Part shown: in pieces, positions 213 to 38,609 of the stretch
How positions within the stretch are numbered: position 1 is the first letter of the stretch
Layout of the letters: the number at the start of each line of letters is the position of its first letter
From: a virus
Taxonomy: Duplodnaviria; Heunggongvirae; Uroviricota; Caudoviricetes
Virus record (IMG/VR): IMGVR_UViG_2698536646_000014
Length of the DNA: 40,176 nucleotides
Reading direction: 5' to 3' (one strand)
The notes under the pieces: model-generated
The model's input: only the letters and a program-made list of their open reading frames with translations
Databases searched by the model: none
Told to the model about the DNA's origin: nothing
Translations under genes and position numbers: made by a program

Positions 213-797
213 TTACTCCCTGACAGGGTTCGTAGGCCACTCAATATCAGGTGCAGTTGACGTATCAACACGGTTCAGCAATACCCGATACTTTTTCCAT
301 GCTTCCAGCAACGAGATTTCTTCCTCCGTTGCAATTTCCAGATCTGCAGCATCCTGAAGCGGCGCAATATGCTCACTGGCTACCTGCATCAGGTTGTTTT
401 TTGTTTCTTCCGCCTCCCGGATCCGGAACAGTTTTTCTGCTTCCGTATCCTTCACCCAGGCTGTGCCGTTCCACTTCTGAAACTCCCCTTCCGGCGATAA
501 CCAGGTAACATTTTCCGGTAACGGACCGAGTTCAGAAATAAATAACGCGTCGCCGGAAGCCACGTCATAAACCGTTTTACCCCGATGATCTTCAACGAGA
601 TGCCACGATGACTCATCACTGTTGAAAACAGCCACGAAGCCAGCCGGAATATCTGGCGGTGCAATATCGGTACTGTTTGCTGGCAGACCTGTATGAGGCG
701 GAATATATGCATCACCTTCACCAATAAATTCATTAGTTCCGGCCAGCAGATTATAAATTTTTATGGTCCGTGGTTGTTCACTCATTCTGAATGCCAT
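213..797 (-). CDS. tfa: tail fiber assembly protein Tfa
   Basis: 194-aa ORF, near-identical over its length to lambda Tfa as recalled ([26 protein letters not shown]...). Start ATG overlaps the stf stop by 1 nt. Confidence 0.93.
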
Positions 798-3700
798 TAT
801 GCAAGCCTCACAATATAGTTAAATGCGATGTTTTTGACGGTGTTTTCCGCGTTACCCGCAGCGTTAACGGTGATGGTATGTCCATGTGAACCAATCGCAA
901 CGGAGTGCGTATGAGCACCAATACCGACAGTATGCGCGTGTGCACCTGCAGATGCTGCTGTGCCGGACAGTGAATGGCTATGATTACCATCTATACTGGT
1001 ATTCGCTAACCACCCCGTAGACATACCTACTGAGCCTTGTACACCCCAGGTATTTTGACCTGAGCTNNNNNNNNNNNNNNNNNNNNNNNNNNNNNNNNNN
1101 NNNNNNNNNNNNNNNNNNNNNNNNNNNNNNNNNNNNNNNNNNNNNNNNNNNNNNNNNNNNNNNNNNNNNNNNNNNNNNNNNNNNNNNNNNNNNNNNNNNN
1201 NNNNNNNNNNNNNNNNNNNNNNNNNNNNNNNNNNNNNNNNNNNNNNNNNNNNNNNNNNNNNNNNNNNNNNNNNNNNNNNNNNNNNNNNNNNNNNNNNNNN
1301 NNNNNNNNNNNNNNNNNNNNNNNNNNNNNNNNNNNNNNNNNNNNNNNNNNNNNNNNNNNNNNNNNNNNNNNNNNNNNNNNNNNNNNNNNNNNNNNNNNNN
1401 NNNNNNNNNNNNNNNNNNNNNNNNNNNNNNNNNNNNNNNNNNNNNNNNNNNNNNNNNNNNNNNNNNNNNNNNNNNNNNNNNNNNNNNNNNNNNNNNNNNN
1501 NNNNNNNNNNNNNNNNNNNNNNNNNNNNNNNNNNNNNNNNNNNNNNNNNNNNNNNNNNNNNNNNNNNNNNTAAGTATCTTTAAAAACACTGGGGTTAAAT
1601 CGACGGCCATCTCTATGGCTGTGATTACCAGCTGCATTCGTGCTGCCACTTAAACTATGGGTATGCGCACCAGTGTTATTCGTGGATTTAGTGCCGTAAT
1701 CAAACGACGATGTGGTTTTCGTCCCCAAATCCGTACTGGATGCGCTGGCGCTGTGGGTATGCGATTTAATGCCGTCCTGTTCCTGAGACAATACGGCCCG
1801 ACCACTGGCAGGTTTGCCCTTAATCGTCCAGCCACGCATATCAGGGATCACGCCTGACGGATAAGCCGCTGCAAGTTTCGGGTATGCAGATTTGTCAAAA
1901 GCCTGCCCCTGCATCAGGGCATAGCCAGACGGAACGGTATCTGATGGCCACGGGATTGGTGCGCCAGGCGGATAAAACTGCTCTGATGGCGTATAGAGTG
2001 AATAAACTGTACCGTCCGTTAACCCTTCCGGCTTATTAGCAGAATATGCTGGTGACGTATGAATCGTCACGCTGGCATTACTGGTATAATCCCATTGAAT
2101 ATTTACACCAGTCGCATAATTTCCGATTGCAACGTAAATATCGTAAGTATCACCAGATGTATTAACCCAGGCAAAATTTGTAAACCCTGTCAATGTGCGC
2201 TGCCATAAAGCACCAGTAATCCCCTTCGGATTACCATTACCTGCACGTAAAACAAGTTCAGATATACCTGCCTGTTGAGGTGACCCCACGTTAAATCCAG
2301 CGCCACCAATCAACGTAATTGAAACAACAGAACTCGCCTGTGGCATGGTTACCGTTGCTAATTTGAACCAACCAGCACCACCGCTGAATGACATTGTTGT
2401 TGAGTTAAGCGTACCAATATCTTTCGGCGTCAGTGTTATATCCGCTGAAAGCGCCTTACCATTCACCTTACGGGCAGAAGGTACCCGACCATTCGCATTG
2501 TCATTAGCTGCTTTCACTGCTTTCGGTGTCGCAGCAAGCGTTTCAGATGTGCTGTTGGTTGCACTACTGAGCTGGACAATTCCTTTTTGTGCTGTCGTAG
2601 CGTCCTGTGCGGTGTATTTCCCGTTAGCCAGGTCATACGCGGCCTTAACGGCTTTTGGCGTTGCCGCCTGTGACTCGGAAGTGCTGTTAGTCGCACTGCT
2701 GAGCTGAACTATCCCTTTCTGTGCTGTCGTTGCATCCTGTGCGGTGTATTTCCCGTTAGCCAGGTCATACGCGGCCTTAACGGCTTTTGGCGTTGCCGCC
2801 TGTGACTCGGAAGTGCTGTTGGTCGCACTGCTGAGCTGTACTATCCCCTTTTTCGTCGTGCTCGCATCCTCAAGCGCCACGGCGGATGCAATATCCTCTG
2901 CCCGTTTTGCTGCTGTCTCGGCGCGCGTTGCCGCGGATTCCGCCGTACTTTTGCTCTGTGCTGCCGCTGCCGCACTGCCAGCAGCCTCTGTCGCCTTCGT
3001 GGATGCCGTCGTGGCGCTGCCCCTCGCTGCTGACGCCTGTCTGGTCGCCTCATCTTTTGAAGCAGACGCAGATGATGCCGATGACGCCGCCGAACTGGCG
3101 GACGATGCGGCAGCCGTTTTTGAGGATTCTGCGCTGGTTTCCGACGCTTTCGCGTTCGTTTCGGATGTCTTCGCTGCGGAAGCAGACCTCGCTGCTGCGC
3201 TGGCCTGTTCAGTGGCTTCGCCAGCCTTCGTTGTGGCTGTTGAAGCGGATGATGCGGCGCTTTCTGCCGATTTTCCGGCGGCGGTGGCACTGACTGCTGC
3301 CTCCTCTGCCTTAATGGACGCCTCACGGGCCGATGATGCAGCTGCTGTCTCAGAGTCTGCCGCAGCTGAGGCGCTCTGTTCCGCTGCCGTTTCAGAAGAC
3401 TTAGCATTCGTCTCGGACGTTTTTGCCGCCTTCACGGAATTTCCTGCCGCCGTTGCCGAGGAGGCTGCACTGCTGGCGCTTGTGGAGGCGTTCGTTTCTG
3501 ATGATTTTGCCGCCTCTTTGGAGGCCGCCGCATCTCTGGCTGAAGTGGCGGCTTCTGACGCTTTCGTTGTCGCAGTGGATGCAGAAGTGGCTGCTGATTT
3601 TTGTGACGCTGCAGCATTCGTTTCTGACGTTTTCGCCGCACCGGCACTGGTGGCCGCCGCGCTTTTTGAGGACTCTGCAGCGGCAGCACTTTTTGATGCT

Positions 3701-4580
3701 TCAGTGGCCTTTGTTGATGCCGTTCCTGCGCTGGAAGACGCCTCCTGAGCCGAAGTCGCGGCCTGTCCGGCTGACGTGCTGGCTGCACGCGCTGAGCCTG
3801 CAGCATCAGTCGCATGGGTTGCCGCCTCACGGGCAGATGTGCCGGCATCACTGGCTGACTTCTTCGCGGCTGCCGTGTTCTGTGCCACCGCGGACGCGTT
3901 ACGCGCCACCTCTTCCACCATCAGTTCAAAACGGCGCAGAGCCTCCGGACGGGCATCATCCTCCGTCATGGCACCGAGAAAATCATTCAGCGTACCGGGT
4001 CGGGAATCTTCATACACGGTGATGGTCCCGGCATGTGACGGCGGGAATCCTTCCACCAACAGAATAACGCTGTACTGACCGTACTCAANNNNNNNNNNNN
4101 NNNNNNNNNNNNNNNNNNNNNNNNNNNNNNNNNNNNNNNNNNNNNNNNNNNNNTTGCCGCCTCACGGGCTGATGTGCTGGCATCGCTGGCTGATTTCTTC
4201 GCGGCTGCCGTGTTCTGTGCCACCGCGGACGCGTTACGCGCCACCTCTTCCACCATCAGTTCAAAGCGGCGCAGTGCCTCAGGACGGGCATCATCCTCCG
4301 TCATGGCACCGAGAAAATCATTCAGCGTACCGGGTCGGGAATCTTCATACACGGTGATGGTCCCGGCATGTGACGGCGGGAATCCTTCCACCAACAGAAT
4401 AACGCTGTACTGACCGTACTCAACGTCCATGCTGTAACGCCCGGCTTCATCCGGATTTTCTGAGGCCAGCGTGTTCACCACCACCGTGGTGCTGTTACGT
4501 TTTGCTTTCAGCTGGATTGTGCAGTTCTGTACCGGTTTTCCTGTGCCGTCTTTCAGTACACCTGAAATCTTTACTGCCAT
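797..4580 (-). CDS. stf: side tail fiber protein Stf, interrupted by two scaffold gaps; reading frame across gaps not recoverable
   Basis: N-terminus [26 protein letters not shown] and C-terminus ...[31 protein letters not shown] match lambda Stf. Ala/Ser-rich shaft with phage-tail-fibre repeats. True start is the ATG at 4580 (track start 4586 is GTG), preceded by GGGGTG. Confidence 0.85.
1067..1570. other. assembly gap (run of N) inside stf
   Basis: Continuous n characters; the translated X-run in the ORF track is an artefact. Confidence 1.
2520..2860 (-). repeat. about 3.3 tandem copies of a 132-bp unit inside stf, encoding a 44-aa tail-fibre repeat
   Basis: Direct repeats gtgctgtt(g/a)gt(t/c)gcact... 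seen three times; protein repeat [44 protein letters not shown] x3. Confidence 0.85.
4089..4153. other. assembly gap (run of N) inside stf, flanked by near-identical duplicated sequence
   Basis: About 265 bp on each side (about 3822-4088 and 4154-4420) are roughly 97% identical, consistent with unmerged contig ends or collapsed paralogous stf copies. Confidence 0.9.
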
Positions 4581-4644: not shown

Positions 4645-5244
4645 TCAGAATTTATAACCGACACCCACGATGAAACCGTCAGTGCGCCAGTCGCCACTGC
4701 CGGAGCCTTCATAAGCAATATCAATGGCCACGGATTCGGTCGGGTTAAACTGCACGCCAGCTCCCCACGCCAGAGACGTGTTGCTGTGGCGACCGTCATC
4801 ACTTCCGGTCAGCACATCGTGCGTTTTCCCCTTGTTGTCAGTTACGCGAAGATAATCCCCGGAGAAAGTCGACACACGGCTGTAAGCCACACCCGCCATC
4901 GCATACGCGCTGAACCATTCATTCACGCGCACAGACGGCCCCGCCATTACGCTGAACCAGCGGTTACGAACGGAATCTTCATGCCAGCGGGTATCGCTGT
5001 AACGGGTCAGCTGGCGATTCTTGTCTCCTGCATAGCTGAATGACGTCACCAGCCCCAGTGTGTCCGTAAACTCATAACGGTATTTCACGTTAATCCCGTT
5101 CAGATCATCACTGCCGGGGACGTTCGTCGAGGCATGAAGATACCCCGCGCTCAGCGTGGACTGATGTTCAGACGCCCATGCAGGCGCACCGGATACGGCC
5201 AGACAAATGGCTGCGGACAAAATTGCTGCACAAACTTTACGCAT
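4645..5244 (-). CDS. lom: outer membrane protein Lom (Ail/Lom family)
   Basis: 199-aa ORF with signal peptide (MRKVCAAILSAAICLAVSGAPAWA) and beta-barrel ending ...GVGYKF; matches lambda Lom. RBS GAGAGGT. Confidence 0.9.
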   Translation of the reverse strand: MRKVCAAILSAAICLAVSGAPAWASEHQSTLSAGYLHASTNVPGSDDLNGINVKYRYEFTDTLGLVTSFSYAGDKNRQLTRYSDTRWHEDSVRNRWFSVMAGPSVRVNEWFSAYAMAGVAYSRVSTFSGDYLRVTDNKGKTHDVLTGSDDGRHSNTSLAWGAGVQFNPTESVAIDIAYEGSGSGDWRTDGFIVGVGYKF

Positions 5245-5265: not shown

Positions 5266-5292
5266 AATAAAAAAGGCGTCATTCCTGACGCC
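5266..5292 (-). terminator. intrinsic terminator between J and lom
   Basis: Hairpin ggcgtca-ttcc-tgacgcc flanked by an A-run (plus strand) / T-run (minus strand). Confidence 0.6.
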
Positions 5293-5314: not shown

Positions 5315-8300
5315 TCAACGAATACTGATGCCGGAAGCGGCTTTTTTGGTCACAATCACCGTACAGTCGGTGATATTGCCTGCCCCCTGATTGCCTTTCT
5401 GGAAAATCTTAAACTCCAGAGTGACGCTTCCCCTGCCACTCGGCATATCAATAACTGCACTGTAACTACCGGGAATGGCCCCTTTAGTTTCTCTGGATGC
5501 GATTAATACGCCGTTTTTGCGAACTTCAAAACCATAACCCGTGTATCGCGTGCCTCCTGGGTTATTTCCGCTCCCCGGATCGTCATACGCTATACCGTTA
5601 AAAATAATGGGCGGAATAATAATCTGGCGGTCAAAGTTATGATCATCGCTGATGGTGACTGTAACCGTACCGTTTGGTGTTTCCGTGTTACCCCACGTAC
5701 CGACTTTTTTCGGGAAGGCTTTTGATACAGCTTTAACGAAATCTCCTCTGACCTGGGTCGCCTCCAGCATGCCCTTAATCGTACAGTTCTGGTTAATCGT
5801 GACATTGTTGAGCGTCCCTGAATTTGCATTCACATTACCGCTGATATCCGCATTTTTAGCGGTCAGCTTTCCGTCTGGTGTCAGGGAAAATGCCGGCGGA
5901 TTTCCACCGCTGGTAATGGTGGGAGCCGTCAGGCGTTTCAGGAACACGTCATTCATGAATATCTGGTTGCCCTGCGCCACAAACATCGGCGTTTCATTCC
6001 CGTTTGCCGGGTCAATAAACGCGATACGGTTAGCGGCAACCAGAAACTGGCTCAGTTTGCCTTCCTCCGTGTCCTCCATGCTGAGGCCAATACCCGCGAC
6101 ATAATGTTTGCCGTCTTTGGTCTGCTCAATTTTGACGCCCCACATGGCATTCCACTTATCGTTGGCGTCCTTCCACTCTTTCGAAAACTCCTCCAGTCTG
6201 CTGGCGTTATCCTCCGTCAGGTCGACTTTTTCCAGCAGCTCCTGGCCGAGATGGGATTCGGTTATCTGGCCTTTGAAAAAATCCAGGTAACCTTCCGCAT
6301 CATCGCTCGCCCGACCGACAGCCTCCACGAATGCTGATTTGCCGACGGTGTTCACACTGCGGATATAAAAGTAATAATCATGGCCCGGCTTAATATTGAT
6401 ACTGGCGGCTATCCAGTACAGCCCCGTGCCAAGGTAGCGGGCTGTGGTTTCAACCTGCCTGATATCCGCAATCCGTTTTTCCGAGAACCAGAACTCAAAC
6501 TGTACCGTCGGGTCATAAACCGCAAGATGCGGCGTGGCGGTTATCTGAAAATAGCCCGGCGTCAGCTCAATCCGCGACGGCGCTGCCGGTGCGGCAATCC
6601 GGAACGATACCGACGCCGGATCGCCCTGCTGCCCCCACGCATTTACTGCCCGGACTGTCAGCCTGTAGTTCCCCAGAGCCAGTTGTGTGAAGCGGTAAGT
6701 GGTTTCCGTCGTCCGGGCCGTGCTGACCAGCCGCTCACGGCCGTCATCCGCTGCCACGGTCAGGCGAAGCAGGAAGCTCACGCCCTTCACCACCTTCGGC
6801 GTGTCCCAGCGGGCCAGCACCTGGTATTCCCCGCTGTCTGCGGTGACTTCTGCGGTCAGGTGCTGCACCGCTGGCGGCGTGACACCATTTACCGTGCCGC
6901 TCTGGTCGCCGTCAAAGTGCGCCCCGTTATCCACGATGGCCTCTTTTTCCGGTACATGCTGCACGGCAGTGATGGCATACGTGCCGTCGTCGTTCTCACG
7001 GATACTCACGCAGCGGAACAGGCGCTGGCGCAGCGTCGGCAGCTTCAGCCCCCATACGCTGTATTCAGCAACGCCGTCAGGAACACGGCTCACTTTCACC
7101 TTCACGCCGTCGGTGACGGACTGAACCTCCACGCTGACCGGACTCCCCTGCCCGTCAACCAGGCTTATCAGCGTGGTGCCGGAAGATGGCAGCGTGATTT
7201 CACGGTCGAGCGTCAGCGTCCGGGTCTGGCTGTTTACCGCCAGCACGCGCCCGCCGGTGCGGATACCGGCATAGTCATCATCGCAGATTTCAATGACATC
7301 GCCCGGTACATGGCGAAGCCCTTCGGCACCCACGCTGAAGTCCACGGTCTGCGTTTCCAGCAGTTCTGTTTTAATCAGCCACAGCCCGGCGCGGTGTGCC
7401 TGCCCCCGGCTGGTACAGCCAAAAGCATCCATCTTCGTGACGTTACGACCGTAACGGGCAATGGCCTGCGTGTCCTCCACAAGCTCTGTCGCCGTCTCCC
7501 AGCCGTTATTCGGGTCAATCCAGTTCACCTCAACGGCATTATGGCGGTCCTTCAGGGCGCTGAANTGGGTCAGCATATCCCACAGACACCAGGCCATGTT
7601 GTTGCTGTATGCTGGCTTAAACGTTCCGTCCCAGATACCGCTGTATTGCCGCGTCTGCGGGTTATAGCTCGACGGCACCTGCAGAATGCGCCCGCGCAGA
7701 TGATAATTACGGCTCACCTGCTGGCTGCCGAACTGCTCCGAATCCACCTGCACGCCGACCAGTGCCGTGTTCGGGTAGCACTGTTTCACATCGATGATTT
7801 CGGTGTATGACGACCAGAGCGTTTTGTTCTGCAGCTGGTCTGTGGTGCTGTCCGGCGTCATCCTGCGCATCCGTATATTGAACGGGCGCGGCGGCAGGTT
7901 ACCCACCACCACCGAGGCCAGATACTGCGAGGTGGTTTTGCCCTTAATGGTGATGTCTTTTTCCGTCACCCAGCCACCATTACGTTGTATCTGAACCAGC
8001 AGGCGGACTTCCGACGGATTCCTGTCCCCCTTTGAGGTGGTTTCCACCAGTGCCTGCACACCGAAGGTAAAGCGCAGACGGTCAATGTTTGCCGACGTGA
8101 TGGTCCGGGTGATCGGCGTGTCGTATTTCACTTCCGTACCCAGTACCGTCTCGGAACCTGATGATTCAAATCCCTCCGGCGGTGTCTGTTCCTGCTCACC
8201 TGCCCGGAACACCACCGTGACACCAGAGATGTTGGTATTCCCCTCACTGTCCAGCACCGGTGTACTGTTCAGCAGCACGCTTTTTAATCCATCCACCGGA

Positions 8301-8410
8301 CCTTCAACCGGCCCTTCGCTGATGGTATCGATCACACTCAGCAACTGCGTGGACTTCAGGTTGTCCTTTGCTTCGCGCGGGGTATGCCCCTTACTGCTGC
8401 CTTTACCCAT
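5315..8410 (-). CDS. J: tail tip / host specificity protein J (central tail fibre); one ambiguous base, about 100 residues missing relative to lambda J, non-lambda C-terminal domain
   Basis: [28 protein letters not shown]... matches lambda J through most of its length. Single n at 7565 sits where about 100 aa of lambda J (HPRYGMGK...APFRYS) are absent. Last roughly 150 aa do not match the lambda LamB-binding domain. Confidence 0.9.
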
Positions 8411-19015: not shown

Positions 19016-20524
19016 TTATTCTTCGGACTGGTCGTCGGTGTGCTGCGGCTCCTGTCGTTTCGTTGCGGCACTGCTGCCTCCTTTATCACTGGCCGGATCG
19101 GTATCAAATACCAGATCCAGCTTGCGGTTTTCATCAATTTCGGCCTTGCGCCGACGTTTGACATCATCCGGATTACGACCACCTGCACGTACCCAGTCTG
19201 ATTCTGTCGCCGCTCCACCACGAATCTGGATTTTCCAGGCCTCAGCCTCCTTAACAGGGTCAATCCACGGCATCACCGGTCCGGAATACACCGCGGTATA
19301 CAGTGAAGAACGGTCAAGATCGCGGGGTAGCCTGATAACACCGGATGCCACAGCCTGTTTCAGCCATGCACGATACATCGGGCGGGTGACGGCACCAATA
19401 AACCAGTCCTGCAGGATCAGGTAGCCATCAGTAGATTCAACCAGCTCCTGACGCTGGGCGCTGTAAGTGCCGTTATAGTTGCGCGCTGTACTGGAAAAAC
19501 TCAGACGACTGCCCGCCGCCACGGCACGCAACTGACCATTACGAAAAGTTTCAAGGTTAGGATTGGGGCGATCCGACTTCACCATTCCGATTTCTTCGCC
19601 GGGTTTCAGATCGTCGTAAATAATGCCTGGCTGAATGGTAAGCTCGCGTTCCTTATCCTTGCTGCCATTACCATCCGGTTCATAGCTCTGCCCGTCGCCT
19701 TTGCGGATGTACATCCCCAGAGCAGCGGCGATCCTTGCTGCAGTCAGCTCATAATCTTCATAATCTTTCAGGGCACTGAGGCGGATCAGCACACCGGACA
19801 ACAAAGACGTCCCGCGCATCTGGTGCAGACGGCGAACAAATTTAAGATGCAGCATTCGCTCTGCATCCACTTCTTTGGTTTCCATCTGCCGTCCGGATAC
19901 GGGACGGCTTTTATACACCAGATATTTTTCGGGACGCCCCCAGTCATCAACAAACACGCCCTGATTCAGCCTGTTGCTCTCATCACTGGTCATGGGAATA
20001 AAGTCCGGCTCGAGCGCCTCCAGCCAGAAATGAACACCGGCAGAAGGCGTCAGGCTGTTTATGCGCCCGGAAACCATCTGGGCAAACACCTCACCATCGC
20101 GCAGCCAGGTACGCAGCATCAGACGTTCCAGCATCGGACGGGTAAACTGCCCGGTGACTTCCGGGCTGACAGACCATTCACTCCATCGGGTGCGAATCTC
20201 CGCAGCCAGGTCACGGGCAATGGCCCCATTGCGTAATACCGGATGTGGCTCGACAATAATCCCGTTTTTCCCCACCACCCGTTCTTCCAGCTTGTCAAAT
20301 ACACCAATAACCAGATCGTGGTTGTTATCAAGGTAACGGGCCTGCTCACGTAACGACACGGCCCCGTACTGGCTTAACTGGTCGGCAGTTCGGTTTTCCC
20401 GCCGGCCTTTGTGTGTCCGCGTCGTTTTTACGGCCTCATAAGCCTGGATCACCGCACGGGAACGCAGCCTTGCCGCTTTCCATCCTGGTGAAAAAACGCC
20501 AATCACATCATCAAGAATTGCCAT
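19016..20524 (-). CDS. portal protein (lambda B family)
   Basis: About 500-aa ORF following the gpW-like gene and terminase; start ATG overlaps the gpW-like stop (TGATG). Confidence 0.8.
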   Translation of the reverse strand: MAILDDVIGVFSPGWKAARLRSRAVIQAYEAVKTTRTHKGRRENRTADQLSQYGAVSLREQARYLDNNHDLVIGVFDKLEERVVGKNGIIVEPHPVLRNGAIARDLAAEIRTRWSEWSVSPEVTGQFTRPMLERLMLRTWLRDGEVFAQMVSGRINSLTPSAGVHFWLEALEPDFIPMTSDESNRLNQGVFVDDWGRPEKYLVYKSRPVSGRQMETKEVDAERMLHLKFVRRLHQMRGTSLLSGVLIRLSALKDYEDYELTAARIAAALGMYIRKGDGQSYEPDGNGSKDKERELTIQPGIIYDDLKPGEEIGMVKSDRPNPNLETFRNGQLRAVAAGSRLSFSSTARNYNGTYSAQRQELVESTDGYLILQDWFIGAVTRPMYRAWLKQAVASGVIRLPRDLDRSSLYTAVYSGPVMPWIDPVKEAEAWKIQIRGGAATESDWVRAGGRNPDDVKRRRKAEIDENRKLDLVFDTDPASDKGGSSAATKRQEPQHTDDQSEE

Positions 20525-25197: not shown

Positions 25198-25414
25198 TCA
25201 GTGACTTAAGGTTGTGATTCCGGAGGAGTCTTCAGAGAACCAGTAATTCTTCCTGGTAGCTTTCCTTTGTAGGTTATCCAAACATTCTGCGCATCTANNN
25301 NNNNNNNNNNNNNNNNNNNNNNNNNNNNNNNNNNNNNNNNNNAAACCAGTACCCGGCACTACCTGCTGAGGTGCCATAGGCGACACCCGTTGTTAACTTA
25401 TCCATGGATTTCAT
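25198..25414 (-). CDS. S: pinholin (S21-like) with dual-start motif; interrupted by scaffold gap, C-terminal frame unresolved
   Basis: N-terminus [24 protein letters not shown] matches S21 (dual starts at M1 and M4); GAGGTG RBS; remainder lost in the N-run at 25298-25342. Confidence 0.6.
25298..25342. other. assembly gap (run of N) inside the holin gene
   Basis: Continuous n characters. Confidence 1.
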
Positions 25415-25481: not shown

Positions 25482-26534
25482 TTATTTCCCCACCAGCTCG
25501 TTTATCTCTTTCACTGTCTGATTAAACCGCTCTGACTCAAGCTCAACACCTAAGGCCCGACGCCCCAGCGCCATTGCTGCTTTTATTGTGGAACCGGATC
25601 CCATAAAAAAATCAGCAACCAGATCACCTGGTCGACTACTGGCATTGATTATTTGCCTGAGCATATCCGCCGGTTTCTCACACGGATGTTTCCCCGGGTA
25701 GAACTGAACGGGTTTATGCATCCAGACATCGGTATAAGGCACGGAGACTGATACGGAGAAATAGCGCCGGAGAGATTTAAACTCATCCAGCAATTCAGAA
25801 TATTTACGATTCAGTGAATCATAAGATGCCACCAGCTGGTGGTGTGGTTGTTCCAGTTGTTGTTCCTGAAACTTCTCTGCCGCTATACGGGAAAACAGTG
25901 CCTGTAACTTCCGATAGTCAGCCTCATTCGGCAACTGCCACTGACTGGCACCAAACCAGTGGGAAACCATATTTTTCTTACCTGTGGCTTCGGCAATTTG
26001 TTTTGCCGTTATACCCAGTTCGGCACGAGCATCCCTGAAATACGATATCAGCGGTGCCATTATGTGCTGTTTGAGTTCCCTTTCTTTTGCCGCATAGCCG
26101 TCACTTTTGCCGCGATATGGCCCCTGGTAATGTTCAGCAAACAGAACGCGCTCTGTGGCAGGAAAATATGCGCGCAGACTTTCTTTATTACACCCATTCC
26201 AACGTCCGGACGGCTTCGCCCAGATGATATGGTTAAGCACGTTGAAACGTTCACGCATCATGATCTCAATATCAGATGCCAGGCGATGCCCACAGAACAG
26301 GTAAAGGCTTCCGGCAGGTTTCAACACCCGCCAGAACTGGGCCAGACAGTGGTCCAGCCACTTAAGGTAATCTTCGTCCCCTTTCCACTGATTGTCCCAA
26401 CCGTTGGGTTTCACCTTGAAGTAAGGCGGATCGGTAACAATCAGGTCAATGGAATCATCAGGCAGGGACTGAATAAAATGCAGGCAATCAGCGTTGATTA
26501 AATCAACACTGTTTATTTTTACAGTATTTTTCAT
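25482..26534 (-). CDS. orphan DNA methyltransferase (beta-class amino-MTase; probably N6-adenine)
   Basis: 350-aa ORF with motif IV DPPY near the N-terminus ([11 protein letters not shown]) and motif I FxGxG near the C-terminus (DFFMGSGST); no adjacent restriction gene. Confidence 0.8.
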
Positions 26535-35024: not shown

Positions 35025-35699
35025 ATGAAAACAGTCCATGACATCCGGCGGTCTAACGCCAGAAAACTGAGAGATGGTGTTGGCGGGAATTCTTCCTTTG
35101 CCACCATGATTGATCGCGAGCCAACCCAGACCAGCAGGTTTATGGGAGATGGTGCAACTAAAAATATCGGTGACAGCATGGCACGGCACATCGAAAAATG
35201 TTTCGACCTGCCTGTCGGATGGCTTGATCAAGAACACCAGACAACGAACATCACAAAAAAACCTGACGTTTCAATCACTAACAAACAAATAACGTTAGTC
35301 CCTGTCATATCATGGGTACAGGCCGGAGCATGGAAAGAAGTTGGCTATTCTGAGGTTGATTTGAGCACAGCAGAAACTTATCCCTGCCCTGTACCCTGTG
35401 GCGAAATGACTTATATCTTGCGGGTGATTGGTGATTCAATGATTGATGAGTACCGCCCGGGAGACATGATTTTTGTTGATCCTGAAGTCCCTGCCTGCCA
35501 CGGTGACGACGTTATTGCATTGATGCACGATACAGGCGAAACCACCTTCAAGCGGTTGATAGAAGATGGAACACAGCGTTATCTCAAAGCATTAAACCCA
35601 AACTGGCCTGAGCCTTACATTAAGATTAACGGTAATTGCTCTATAATTGGTACAGTGATTTTCTCAGGAAAACCAAGAAGATACATAATAAAGGCCTAA
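35025..35699 (+). CDS. CI-type prophage repressor (N-terminal HTH, C-terminal S24 LexA-like peptidase)
   Basis: 224-aa ORF with C-terminal autocleavage domain: GDSM serine motif and downstream lysine (TFKRL), PGD turn. Confidence 0.85.
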   Translation: MKTVHDIRRSNARKLRDGVGGNSSFATMIDREPTQTSRFMGDGATKNIGDSMARHIEKCFDLPVGWLDQEHQTTNITKKPDVSITNKQITLVPVISWVQAGAWKEVGYSEVDLSTAETYPCPVPCGEMTYILRVIGDSMIDEYRPGDMIFVDPEVPACHGDDVIALMHDTGETTFKRLIEDGTQRYLKALNPNWPEPYIKINGNCSIIGTVIFSGKPRRYIIKA

Positions 35700-35766: not shown

Positions 35767-36201
35767 TATCTAAAAGAAACACAGCACAGGCAAGATTAAA
35801 CAAAATTTGGTTGTAACACGGCGTATGGCACATGCGTCGTTAGCGGTCTGGGGACGTTAAAGGGGACAATCCACTCCTTGCTCGGGCAAACAAACCAGGT
35901 AGCCGGAATGTGCAAGTCAATGATGATGCTGATAAGACGCCTAACCAGCGTGGCGATTCGGTTTGACGCCTGGGAAGAGACCAGGGTGCAACGATGAGGA
36001 CATTTATGGAACCGCGACAAAGTGTGGTGCCGTAACTGGCTAAGTGCTCTCAGCGTTGTGGTGAATGCGCAGGCTGATGCGCGAAAGACATTGCAGCTAA
36101 TGCGGAAAAGAGCTGTTCGGCGGGGCAATTAAACGCCCGTGAGAGTCTGAAATAACCGCAAGCCGGAGATCAGCACCGGTCACCACAACAGCCACTGCTT
36201 T

Positions 36202-36247
36202 GGCGGTACCAGTTTGTACACTTGCTTCCGGCTGGTACCGCTCTTTT
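36202..36247 (+). terminator. strong hairpin plus T-run at the end of the untranslated leader
   Basis: 10-bp arms gcggtaccag / ctggtaccgc around a 19-nt loop, followed by CTCTTTTT. Coordinates approximate (1-2 bp). Confidence 0.55.
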
Positions 36248-36385
36248 TACAAAACAGAGAAGAGCATCACCGGACGACGGGCTCATAACCAAATCCATCC
36301 GGGCGGCTGCCACCGCAGGTGTTCTTCTCTGTTTTGTGGAGAAACCAACCGACCTTGCAGGGTCGATATGATTAGGAGCAGCAAA

Positions 36386-36748
36386 ATGGCTAGCGAACGC
36401 AGTACTGATGTGCAGGCATTTATTGGGGAGCTGGACGGCGGCGTATTTGAAACCAAAATCGGCGCAGTTCTCAGTGAAGTCGCTTCCGGTGTGATGAACA
36501 CGAAAACCAAAGGTAAGGTCTCACTCAACCTGGAAATCGAACCATTTGATGAGAACCGTGTGAAAATCAAACACAAACTCTCATATGTTCGCCCGACTAA
36601 CCGCGGGAAAATTTCCGAAGAAGACACCACCGAAACGCCGATGTATGTCAATCGCGGTGGTCGCCTGACTATTCTGCAGGAAGACCAGGGACAATTACTG
36701 ACTCTTGCCGGTGAACCTGACGGAAAACTCCGCGCAGCAGGTCATTAA
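36386..36748 (+). CDS. hypothetical protein, YfdP-like
   Basis: 120-aa ORF from the ATG preceded by AGGAG; upstream part of the track ORF runs through the terminator hairpin and is not coding. Confidence 0.55.
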   Translation: MASERSTDVQAFIGELDGGVFETKIGAVLSEVASGVMNTKTKGKVSLNLEIEPFDENRVKIKHKLSYVRPTNRGKISEEDTTETPMYVNRGGRLTILQEDQGQLLTLAGEPDGKLRAAGH

Positions 36749-36813
36749 TATCGTTCTTAATTAACCGATTATTTATCTCATCACTGAATATCTTTATATA
36801 GTGAGGACTTATT

Positions 36814-37638
36814 ATGTCTCAGAACTTAGACGCAACCGCAATTAATCAAATCCATGCCCTTATTTCTGCTCAGGGTGTTAATGAAATTATCAGTAAGATT
36901 GGTGCCGATGCTGTGGCATTGCCTGAGAATTTCCGCATTCATGATCTGGAAAAATTAAATTTAAATCGTTTCCGTTTCCGTGGTGCGCTTTCCACTGCCA
37001 GCATCGATGACTTTACTCGTTATTCTAAAGATCTTGCAGATGAAGGCACCCGCTGCTTTATCGATGCTGATAATATGCGTGCCGTCAGTGTTCTTAACCT
37101 GGGTACTATTGATGAACCAGGTCACGCAGATAACACCGCCACTCTCAAACTGAAAAAGACAGCTCCGTTCTCTGCTCTGTTGTCTGTTAATGGCGAGCGT
37201 AACTCCCAGAAGTCACTGGCAGAATGGATTGAAGACTGGGCCGACTACCTTGTGGGCTTTGATGCTAATGGTGACGCCATTCAGGCAACCAAAGCGGCTG
37301 CGGCGATCCGTAAAATCACAATTGAAGCGAACCAGACCGCTGATTTTGAAGATAATGACTTCAGCGGCAAACGCTCCCTGATGGAGTCTGTCGAAGCGAA
37401 GACCAAAGACATTATGCCAGTGGCATTTGAATTTAAATGCGTTCCGTTTGAAGGTCTGAAAGAACGTCCGTTTAAATTACGCCTCAGCATTATCACTGGC
37501 GATCGTCCTGTACTGGTTCTGCGCATTATTCAGCTGGAAGCGGTACAGGAAGAAATGGCTAACGAATTTCGTGATCTGCTTGTTGAGAAATTCAAAGACA
37601 GCAAAGTAGAAACCTTTATTGGTACTTTCACCGCCTGA
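36814..37638 (+). CDS. YfdQ-like protein (DUF2303)
   Basis: 274-aa ORF, same length as E. coli CPS-53 YfdQ as recalled; follows the YfdP-like gene. Confidence 0.55.
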
Positions 37639-37649
37639 TTTCATTACTG

Positions 37650-37673
37650 CAAATGCCCCTGCGGGGGCATTTA
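37650..37673 (+). terminator. terminator-like hairpin after the YfdQ-like gene
   Basis: tgcccc-tgcg-ggggca followed by TTTA; weak U-tract. Confidence 0.45.
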
Positions 37674-37814
37674 CGGAAGCGATAATTTTAACTATTGCCG
37701 CCCCTATAAAGAACCATTAAACAATAACGTGACGTAGCTATTGATAGTAAATGAAGCACTTGCAAAATAATTGCATTGCGTATATATACACACATGTGTT
37801 GTATTACAGCGATA

Positions 37815-38609
37815 ATGGTAAAGCAAATGATTAACTCTGAAGCAATTGAGCAACTAATGTGGCTATGGTCCTTATTTGACATTAAATTCTTATCTATTCT
37901 TGCCGCTGCCTTCACTATATATTTTGGCGTGCAAAAAATATCAAAAAAGGTGACAGTGTCGTATTCAGCAAATGCAAGTAGAATATATGACATGCATATA
38001 TCAACCATAATCCTGAATAATAAAAGAGATAATGCAATTGCTATATCTTCAATCAATATGGAGGTTGAAGGTAAAGGGATACTACAAGTTATTAAATTTG
38101 ACTCCCCTCTTCTTTTAAAGAACTATGATTCTTTAAAAGTTGAACCACCAAAATTTAGCAGCCTTTACAATAATGATGGCGTAGTTAAGTTAGATATTTC
38201 TGATAAGTTTCATTTTTATATAATCACGACATCTGGAGATGAAATTAAATGTATTTCTGAAAATAAATATGTAGCACCAAACATGGAAAACAAAATAGCT
38301 ACAGACATAAGAAAATTTAATGGCATTGTCTTAACAAACAGAATGTCTTATATTTTTTTCTATGCAAATGACAACGGAGAGAAATACTGCATAATAGATG
38401 TTTCATTGTTCATAAATGGTGACAACCCATTTCATTTTAATTTTTTAAAAGAAGATGAATTAAGAGATTTTTCTAGCATCCTTATTAGTTACGGATATCA
38501 CCAACAGTTTAAAAGTTATGCATTGTTTAAAATAGACAACCATCTTGCTCCTTCTTTGGTTTTAAATAAATCAATGATAGAAAATAATATTATTGAAATG
38601 AATAAGTAA
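37815..38609 (+). CDS. AT-rich gene for an N-terminally membrane-anchored protein of unknown function (candidate exclusion/abortive-infection protein)
   Basis: About 264 aa; one N-terminal hydrophobic helix (LMWLWSLFDIKFLSILAAAFTIYFGV); Asn/Lys/Ile-rich; very low GC versus neighbours; own promoter-like TTGCAA - about 17 bp - TATATA (about 37760-37788). Start 37815 or 37827. Confidence 0.6.
   Translation: MVKQMINSEAIEQLMWLWSLFDIKFLSILAAAFTIYFGVQKISKKVTVSYSANASRIYDMHISTIILNNKRDNAIAISSINMEVEGKGILQVIKFDSPLLLKNYDSLKVEPPKFSSLYNNDGVVKLDISDKFHFYIITTSGDEIKCISENKYVAPNMENKIATDIRKFNGIVLTNRMSYIFFYANDNGEKYCIIDVSLFINGDNPFHFNFLKEDELRDFSSILISYGYHQQFKSYALFKIDNHLAPSLVLNKSMIENNIIEMNK

Follow-up and report, generated by a model that had tools for sequence, protein, structure and literature searches.

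Introduction

The h434 host-range allele has been in use in lambda genetics for decades. It is the allele of gene J in phage 434 (OL657226, CPT_434_21) and is present in the lambda h434 imm21 hybrid (OM418627) as well, and both the allele and its hybrid have already been sequenced (PMC9119081). Host specificity resides in the gpJ C-terminus (PMC11101478, PMC3509688), and swapping 434 J into lambda moves adsorption from LamB to OmpC, which is the receptor of 434 itself (PMC11101478, PMC3509688, PMC12502783). Structurally, the lambda receptor-binding domain (RBD) engages LamB with loops L1-L4, and a spreading of the domain base is relayed via the straight fiber and the helical shaft so that the hub opens (PMC11101478). 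For 434, an AlphaFold3 model from a 2025 study docks J on trimeric OmpC through three loops, and the RBDs of lambda, 434 and phi330 share 35-40% pairwise identity, with contact loops that are not conserved (PMC12502783). OmpC dependence was established by knockout and complementation for phi330, a siphophage of EHEC (PMC12502783), and OmpC use has been reported for the J protein of Salmonella Gifsy-1, whose C-terminus is 18% identical to that of lambda (PMC12312913).

Here we compare these systems with gene J of a Caudoviricetes DNA stretch of 40,176 nucleotides (IMG/VR record IMGVR_UViG_2698536646_000014), hereafter the window. A first reading of the letters had proposed that J of this virus is lambda-like until its last ~150 residues, which would diverge completely, and that the phage probably uses an outer-membrane receptor other than LamB (hereafter the original prediction).

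A lambda-like gene J with a 434-type tip

The J region of the window, as delineated from the list of open reading frames, their translations, Pfam matches and the alignments described below, contains the following features:

5315..8410, minus strand: gene J (tail tip attachment / central tail fiber protein)
5810..8410, minus strand: lambda-like part of J, residues 1-867
7565..7565, no strand: single N standing for ~319 nt (106 codons) within the hub / Phage-tail_3 domain, at the place of lambda J residues 282-387
5318..5809, minus strand: 434-type (h434) cassette, J residues 868-1031
5321..5728, minus strand: Ig-like RBD proper (Pfam PF12421, Ig_GpJ_C), J residues 895-1030
5269..5292, minus strand: GC-rich hairpin followed by a T-run downstream of J, likely an intrinsic terminator
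4645..5244, minus strand: gene for a Lom/Ail-family outer-membrane protein
213-797, minus strand: tail fiber assembly protein Tfa

The open reading frame of 1031 codons at 5315..8410 encodes a homologue of lambda J, in which the Pfam domains FNIII-A_GpJ, Phage-tail_3, Ig_J, Ig_J_second, Phage_Tail_Tip and Ig_GpJ_C follow each other in this order, all above their cut-offs. This is the architecture of a gpJ, with two FNIII/Ig domains, a hub, a tail-tip fiber domain and a C-terminal Ig-like RBD. The flanking genes stand in lambda order, with Pfam matches to Phage_min_tail (M), Phage_tail_L, JAB plus NlpC/P60 (K) and Lambda_tail_I upstream, and to Ail_Lom, phage_tail_N (the N-terminus of Stf) and Caudo_TAP (Tfa) downstream, which makes up an M-L-K-I-J-lom-stf-tfa cluster. 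Given this domain architecture and the M, L, K, I, Lom, Stf and Tfa neighbors, we identify the frame as gene J of a lambda-like prophage. Over its full length, the gene is 95-96% identical in DNA to J of 434, ev207, mEp460 and lambda h434 imm21.

The protein was aligned with lambda J (NC_001416) and with 434 J (OL657226), and identities were counted on either side of residue 868. Upstream, residues 1-867 are equally close to the two references (843/866 identical, or 97.3%, to lambda J and likewise 843/866, or 97.3%, to 434 J), and this part spans the hub domains, the two FNIII/Ig domains, the alpha-helical shaft and the greater part of the central straight fiber. Downstream, residues 868-1031 retain only 65 of 153 identities to lambda J (42%, with a further 17 gap columns) and 159 of 164 to 434 J (97%), the contrast between 97.3% and 42%, both measured against lambda J, being highly significant (Fisher exact p = 1.5e-62). 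The same break is seen in the DNA, where identity to lambda is 177/191 (92.7%) at 6000-5810 and 247/470 (52.6%, plus 39 gap columns) at 5809-5313, with the change falling within ~15 nt of 5809, and where the cassette is identical to 434 at 485 of 497 nt (97.6%). J of 434 itself loses identity to lambda at the same alignment columns, i.e., at the same junction.

J in the window is thus a mosaic, and the original prediction of a lambda-like protein with a divergent end holds in its core, the divergent part being ~164 rather than 150 residues long. The span that it had given for this part (5315-5800) is essentially right, as the break lies at ~5809, and the 31-residue peptide quoted from it is found at J residues 899-929 (window 5624-5716).

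The tip carries the h434 allele, as indicated by the identity of the cassette to 434 in both protein and DNA and by the shared junction to the lambda-like body; domain architecture and breakpoint relative to lambda are common to 434 J and J in the window, and the two proteins differ at five residues of the cassette, with 23 further substitutions in the remainder of J. It does not carry the LamB-binding allele of lambda, since the 42% identity and the 17 gap columns concern lambda J 974-1132, a segment that includes the receptor-contact loops.

The 434-like block runs past the J stop, through the hairpin terminator and into the Lom/Ail gene. The terminator stem (5275-5292), read on the minus strand, is followed by TTTTTTATT, and the equivalent site in the 434 record, in the J-lom interval, is marked as a terminator. 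The Lom protein (Pfam Ail_Lom, E = 1.5e-122) is identical to the 434 Ail/PagC/OmpX protein at 194 of 199 residues (97%). At the DNA level, similarity of lom to lambda is patchy between 5105 and 4772, and lambda similarity resumes at ~4772.

Length of J and probable assembly joins

As read, J is 1031 aa long rather than 1132-1137, and the missing length lies at a single position. The alignments with lambda J and with 434 J both show a 106-column gap at 7565, where the local sequence is ...ACC CAN TTC AGC... and where the frame is kept with 106 codons unread, so that J would reach ~1137 aa if the gap were filled. A contig of E. coli SCPM-O-B-8794 has 319 nt at that point, between its positions 3782 and 4102. 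Taken literally, the absence of lambda residues 282-387 with the frame preserved across the N would correspond to a real in-frame deletion of 106 codons in the hub, which would leave J defective and make its RBD a relic without current function. We regard this as highly improbable, as the junction consists of an N and not of called bases, as the remainder of J is free of stop codons and frameshifts and 97% identical to functional phages, and as further N runs occur at three places in the window (1067-1570, 4089-4153 and 25298-25342), of which the second has duplicated flanks of ~250 bp typical of scaffolded drafts.

This second run, 65 N inside stf, is bordered by 4421-4168 and 4086-3833, which both match lambda 19809-20062, and the stf reading frame changes across it; run and duplicated flanks look like a scaffolding artifact. 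With several N runs in the window and the duplication around stf, we interpret these N as joins introduced when a draft assembly was scaffolded, and the N at 7565 is most likely such an assembly join rather than a biological deletion.

The tip as a lambda-type receptor-binding domain

The h434 cassette includes the final layers of the central straight fiber in addition to the RBD, with the last ~27 fiber residues preceding the Pfam domain. The domain itself scores 89 bits with PF12421, for which the cut-off is 26.2 (E = 3.7e-25), over profile positions 1-134 of 135, and the lambda gpJ chains in the PDB match the tip over the whole domain (8xcj/8xck, E = 2e-49; 8iyk, E = 2e-48). The motifs DDHxFDRQI, DMPxGRG and KKxAxGIS are kept as in lambda. 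The statement that the end of J diverges completely was therefore too strong, for the tail aligns end to end with the lambda domain at 42% identity, passes the PF12421 cut-off and matches lambda gpJ in the PDB (E = 2e-49). We also considered a non-homologous C-terminus of a different fold, which is rejected by the lambda alignment and by the PDB and Pfam matches.

Judged from sequence comparison, the tip is the same domain as the lambda RBD with different loops, its predicted fold being fixed by the matches to PF12421 and to solved lambda gpJ. Relative to the LamB-binding lambda gpJ RBD (8XCJ/8XCK; PF12421), it belongs to the same family, shares the framework motifs and follows a straight fiber that is identical upstream, including lambda 902-933, and it differs by indels at three sites (+2 after FPKKVG, +6 in GIAYDDPG and -6 near the C-terminal loop). 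The 42% identity to lambda agrees with the 35-40% published between RBD classes (PMC12502783). Among solved structures, the best match to the last 201 residues of J is an entry named 'A8 gpJ 713' (PDB 9wca/9wcb, E = 2e-57, whole RBD aligned), which belongs to another allele class, its domain differing from the one in the window by numerous substitutions and indels. A literature search for a paper describing PDB 9wca 'A8 gpJ 713' found none.

Distribution of the tip among phages and E. coli genomes

A tblastn search with the last 171 aa of J (5315-5830) against 50,697 phage records matched 243 of them, with a bimodal distribution of identities, 74 of the records being at 90% identity or higher, 169 under 60% and none in the interval, which fits discrete exchangeable cassettes. 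The tip was 100% identical in nine records, namely mEp332, vB_EcoS-569R4, PhiR34_1, PhiR42_1, PhiR68_2, ev243 (two accessions), Kati and phiSTEC1575-Stx2k, and 98-99% identical in many long-tailed Stx-converting phages. Over the same 171 aa, identity was 97.1% to phage 434 and 96.5% to lambda h434 imm21. With the exact allele present in nine records, this is a widespread natural form of the h434 class and not a specialized derivative.

In bacterial genomes, megablast with the 516-nt tip DNA (at least 80% identity required) detected it in 2313 of 5426 complete E. coli genomes, or ~43%, as many as 7 copies being found in one genome, and 2288 of the 2316 matching records were at 90% identity or above. 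An exact 72-nt RBD string over the window-specific substitutions gave one match among species-representative genomes, in E. coli SCPM-O-B-8794 (JAATUR010000020.1, 6331-6402), on a related contig (93-98% identity). Overall, the tip allele goes back to the classical genetics of lambda/434 hybrids, and it is one of the most frequent J tips in E. coli.

Predicted receptor and entry

OmpC, in the manner of the h434 type, is the likely receptor of this phage, since phage 434 and the lambda h434 hybrids adsorb to OmpC. In the alignment with J proteins of known receptor specificity, the tip shares 159/164 residues with OmpC-using 434 and 65/153 with lambda. The proposal of a receptor other than LamB is supported by the 97% identity to the 434 tip together with the literature linking 434 to OmpC, and identity to the LamB-binding domain of lambda, which would have spoken against it if high, is only 42%. 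A search of the literature for adsorption or knockout data on the phages with 100% identical tips (mEp332, ev243, PhiR34, Kati-type, phiSTEC1575) and on mEp460 found nothing usable, and a paper that works with phages of this kind, reached via ECOR13, contains no data on J and OmpC. By their published descriptions (PMC12502783, PMC12312913), phi330 and Gifsy-1 share the design of J in the window, with a conserved N-terminal part of ~960-970 residues and a swapped C-terminal RBD, and their tips are separate RBD classes.

A 434-type origin could nonetheless be combined with a changed specificity. The cassette differs from that of 434 (residue in the window given first) by N913D, R993G, I1002V, Q1004H and G1009R, and four of the five substitutions cluster at 993-1009, beside the loop that carries the 6-residue deletion relative to lambda. 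This loop aligns with lambda J 1104-1107, which we take to be the sites of OmpF-enabling mutations. In addition, one J substitution is enough to add OmpC use in phage 21 (PMC11336670), so small changes in J can shift specificity. It is thus conceivable that the tip is of 434 type by descent and that the five substitutions retuned it, either toward another porin (OmpF, LamB or another trimeric beta-barrel) or toward certain OmpC alleles, in which case the K-12 OmpC would be the wrong receptor. We consider this unlikely, given the overall 97% identity to 434 and the occurrence of the exact allele in nine phage records, several of which list K-12 MG1655 or ECOR13 as host. Similarly, we give little credence to the idea that the variant N913, R993, I1002, Q1004, G1009, found in at least nine phages, differs in specificity from 434 by preferring certain wild E. 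coli OmpC alleles or by using two porins. If it did, what is called the h434 class of E. coli prophages, common as it is, would consist of functionally distinct sub-alleles tracking OmpC polymorphism.

Returning to OmpC as the 434-type receptor, we hold it to be very probable that the mosaic J, with its lambda-like body and h434 cassette, mediates adsorption to OmpC rather than LamB with a lambda-like trigger. At the level of the gene, the lambda-like J body is joined at ~5809 to the h434 cassette, and the 434-type sequence extends across the J terminator into lom. The cassette encodes a trimeric Ig-like RBD of the lambda type with different distal loops, and the virion would adsorb through it to the trimeric porin OmpC, and not to LamB, by homology with 434 and the lambda h434 hybrids. 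Receptor engagement would then be relayed via the conserved central straight fiber and the helical shaft, and the tail tip would open as in lambda; we infer the same trigger mechanism because everything upstream of residue 868 is lambda-like.

The side tail fiber may add a receptor contact of its own, and the stf gene in the window is broken by two N runs (1067-1570 and 4089-4153). Tfa is identical to its lambda counterpart at 183 of 194 residues (94%), which suggests that the side-fiber tip is probably of the Ur-lambda type. As the Stf of Ur-lambda has been reported to target OmpC (PMC12312913), the J tip and the side fibers might both address OmpC.

A separate observation concerns the central straight fiber. 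Residues 796-827 of J (5930-6025, minus strand) correspond to lambda J 902-933, including F924, and are 100% conserved. In lambda, this stretch of 32 residues triggers HepS, the abortive-infection nuclease of Gifsy-1 (PMC13043305). With the trigger stretch fully kept, the phage is predicted to be sensitive to HepS.

The rest of the prophage

Outside the 434-like block, the prophage is not 434. For the head, tail and early regions, the nearest phages are mEp460 and the ECOR-derived PhiR55_1, PhiR40_1 and PhiR47_1. This composition is ordinary lambdoid mosaicism.

Two further regions are mentioned here as observations in their own right. Downstream of the gene for a CI-like repressor (35025-35699), where lambda has rexAB, 36200-38609 contains three co-oriented open reading frames on the plus strand:

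36200-36748, plus strand: open reading frame matching phrog_204
36814-37638, plus strand: open reading frame with a DUF2303 domain
37776-38609, plus strand: open reading frame matching phrog_14996 (~34% GC)

None of the three had a PADLOC match, and they are candidates for lysogen-expressed morons. In the late region, a gene for a DNA methylase (N6_N4_Mtase, 25482-26534, minus strand) adjoins the run of 45 N at 25298-25342.

Conclusions

Nothing in this locus departs from what is known, as it consists of a long-known h434 tip on a lambda-like prophage, and the finding is real but ordinary. For the prophage, it provides a likely receptor, OmpC, and beyond this annotation it matters little. For lambdoid phages more broadly, it adds another case of receptor-binding tips being exchanged between J genes in cassette form. 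Since tip-like DNA is present in ~43% of complete E. coli genomes, the h434-type tip is the common state and not an exception. The lambda reference, with its LamB receptor, should not be taken as representative of lambda-like prophages. Receptor prediction in this group is best based on the last ~165 residues of J, and not on overall J similarity.
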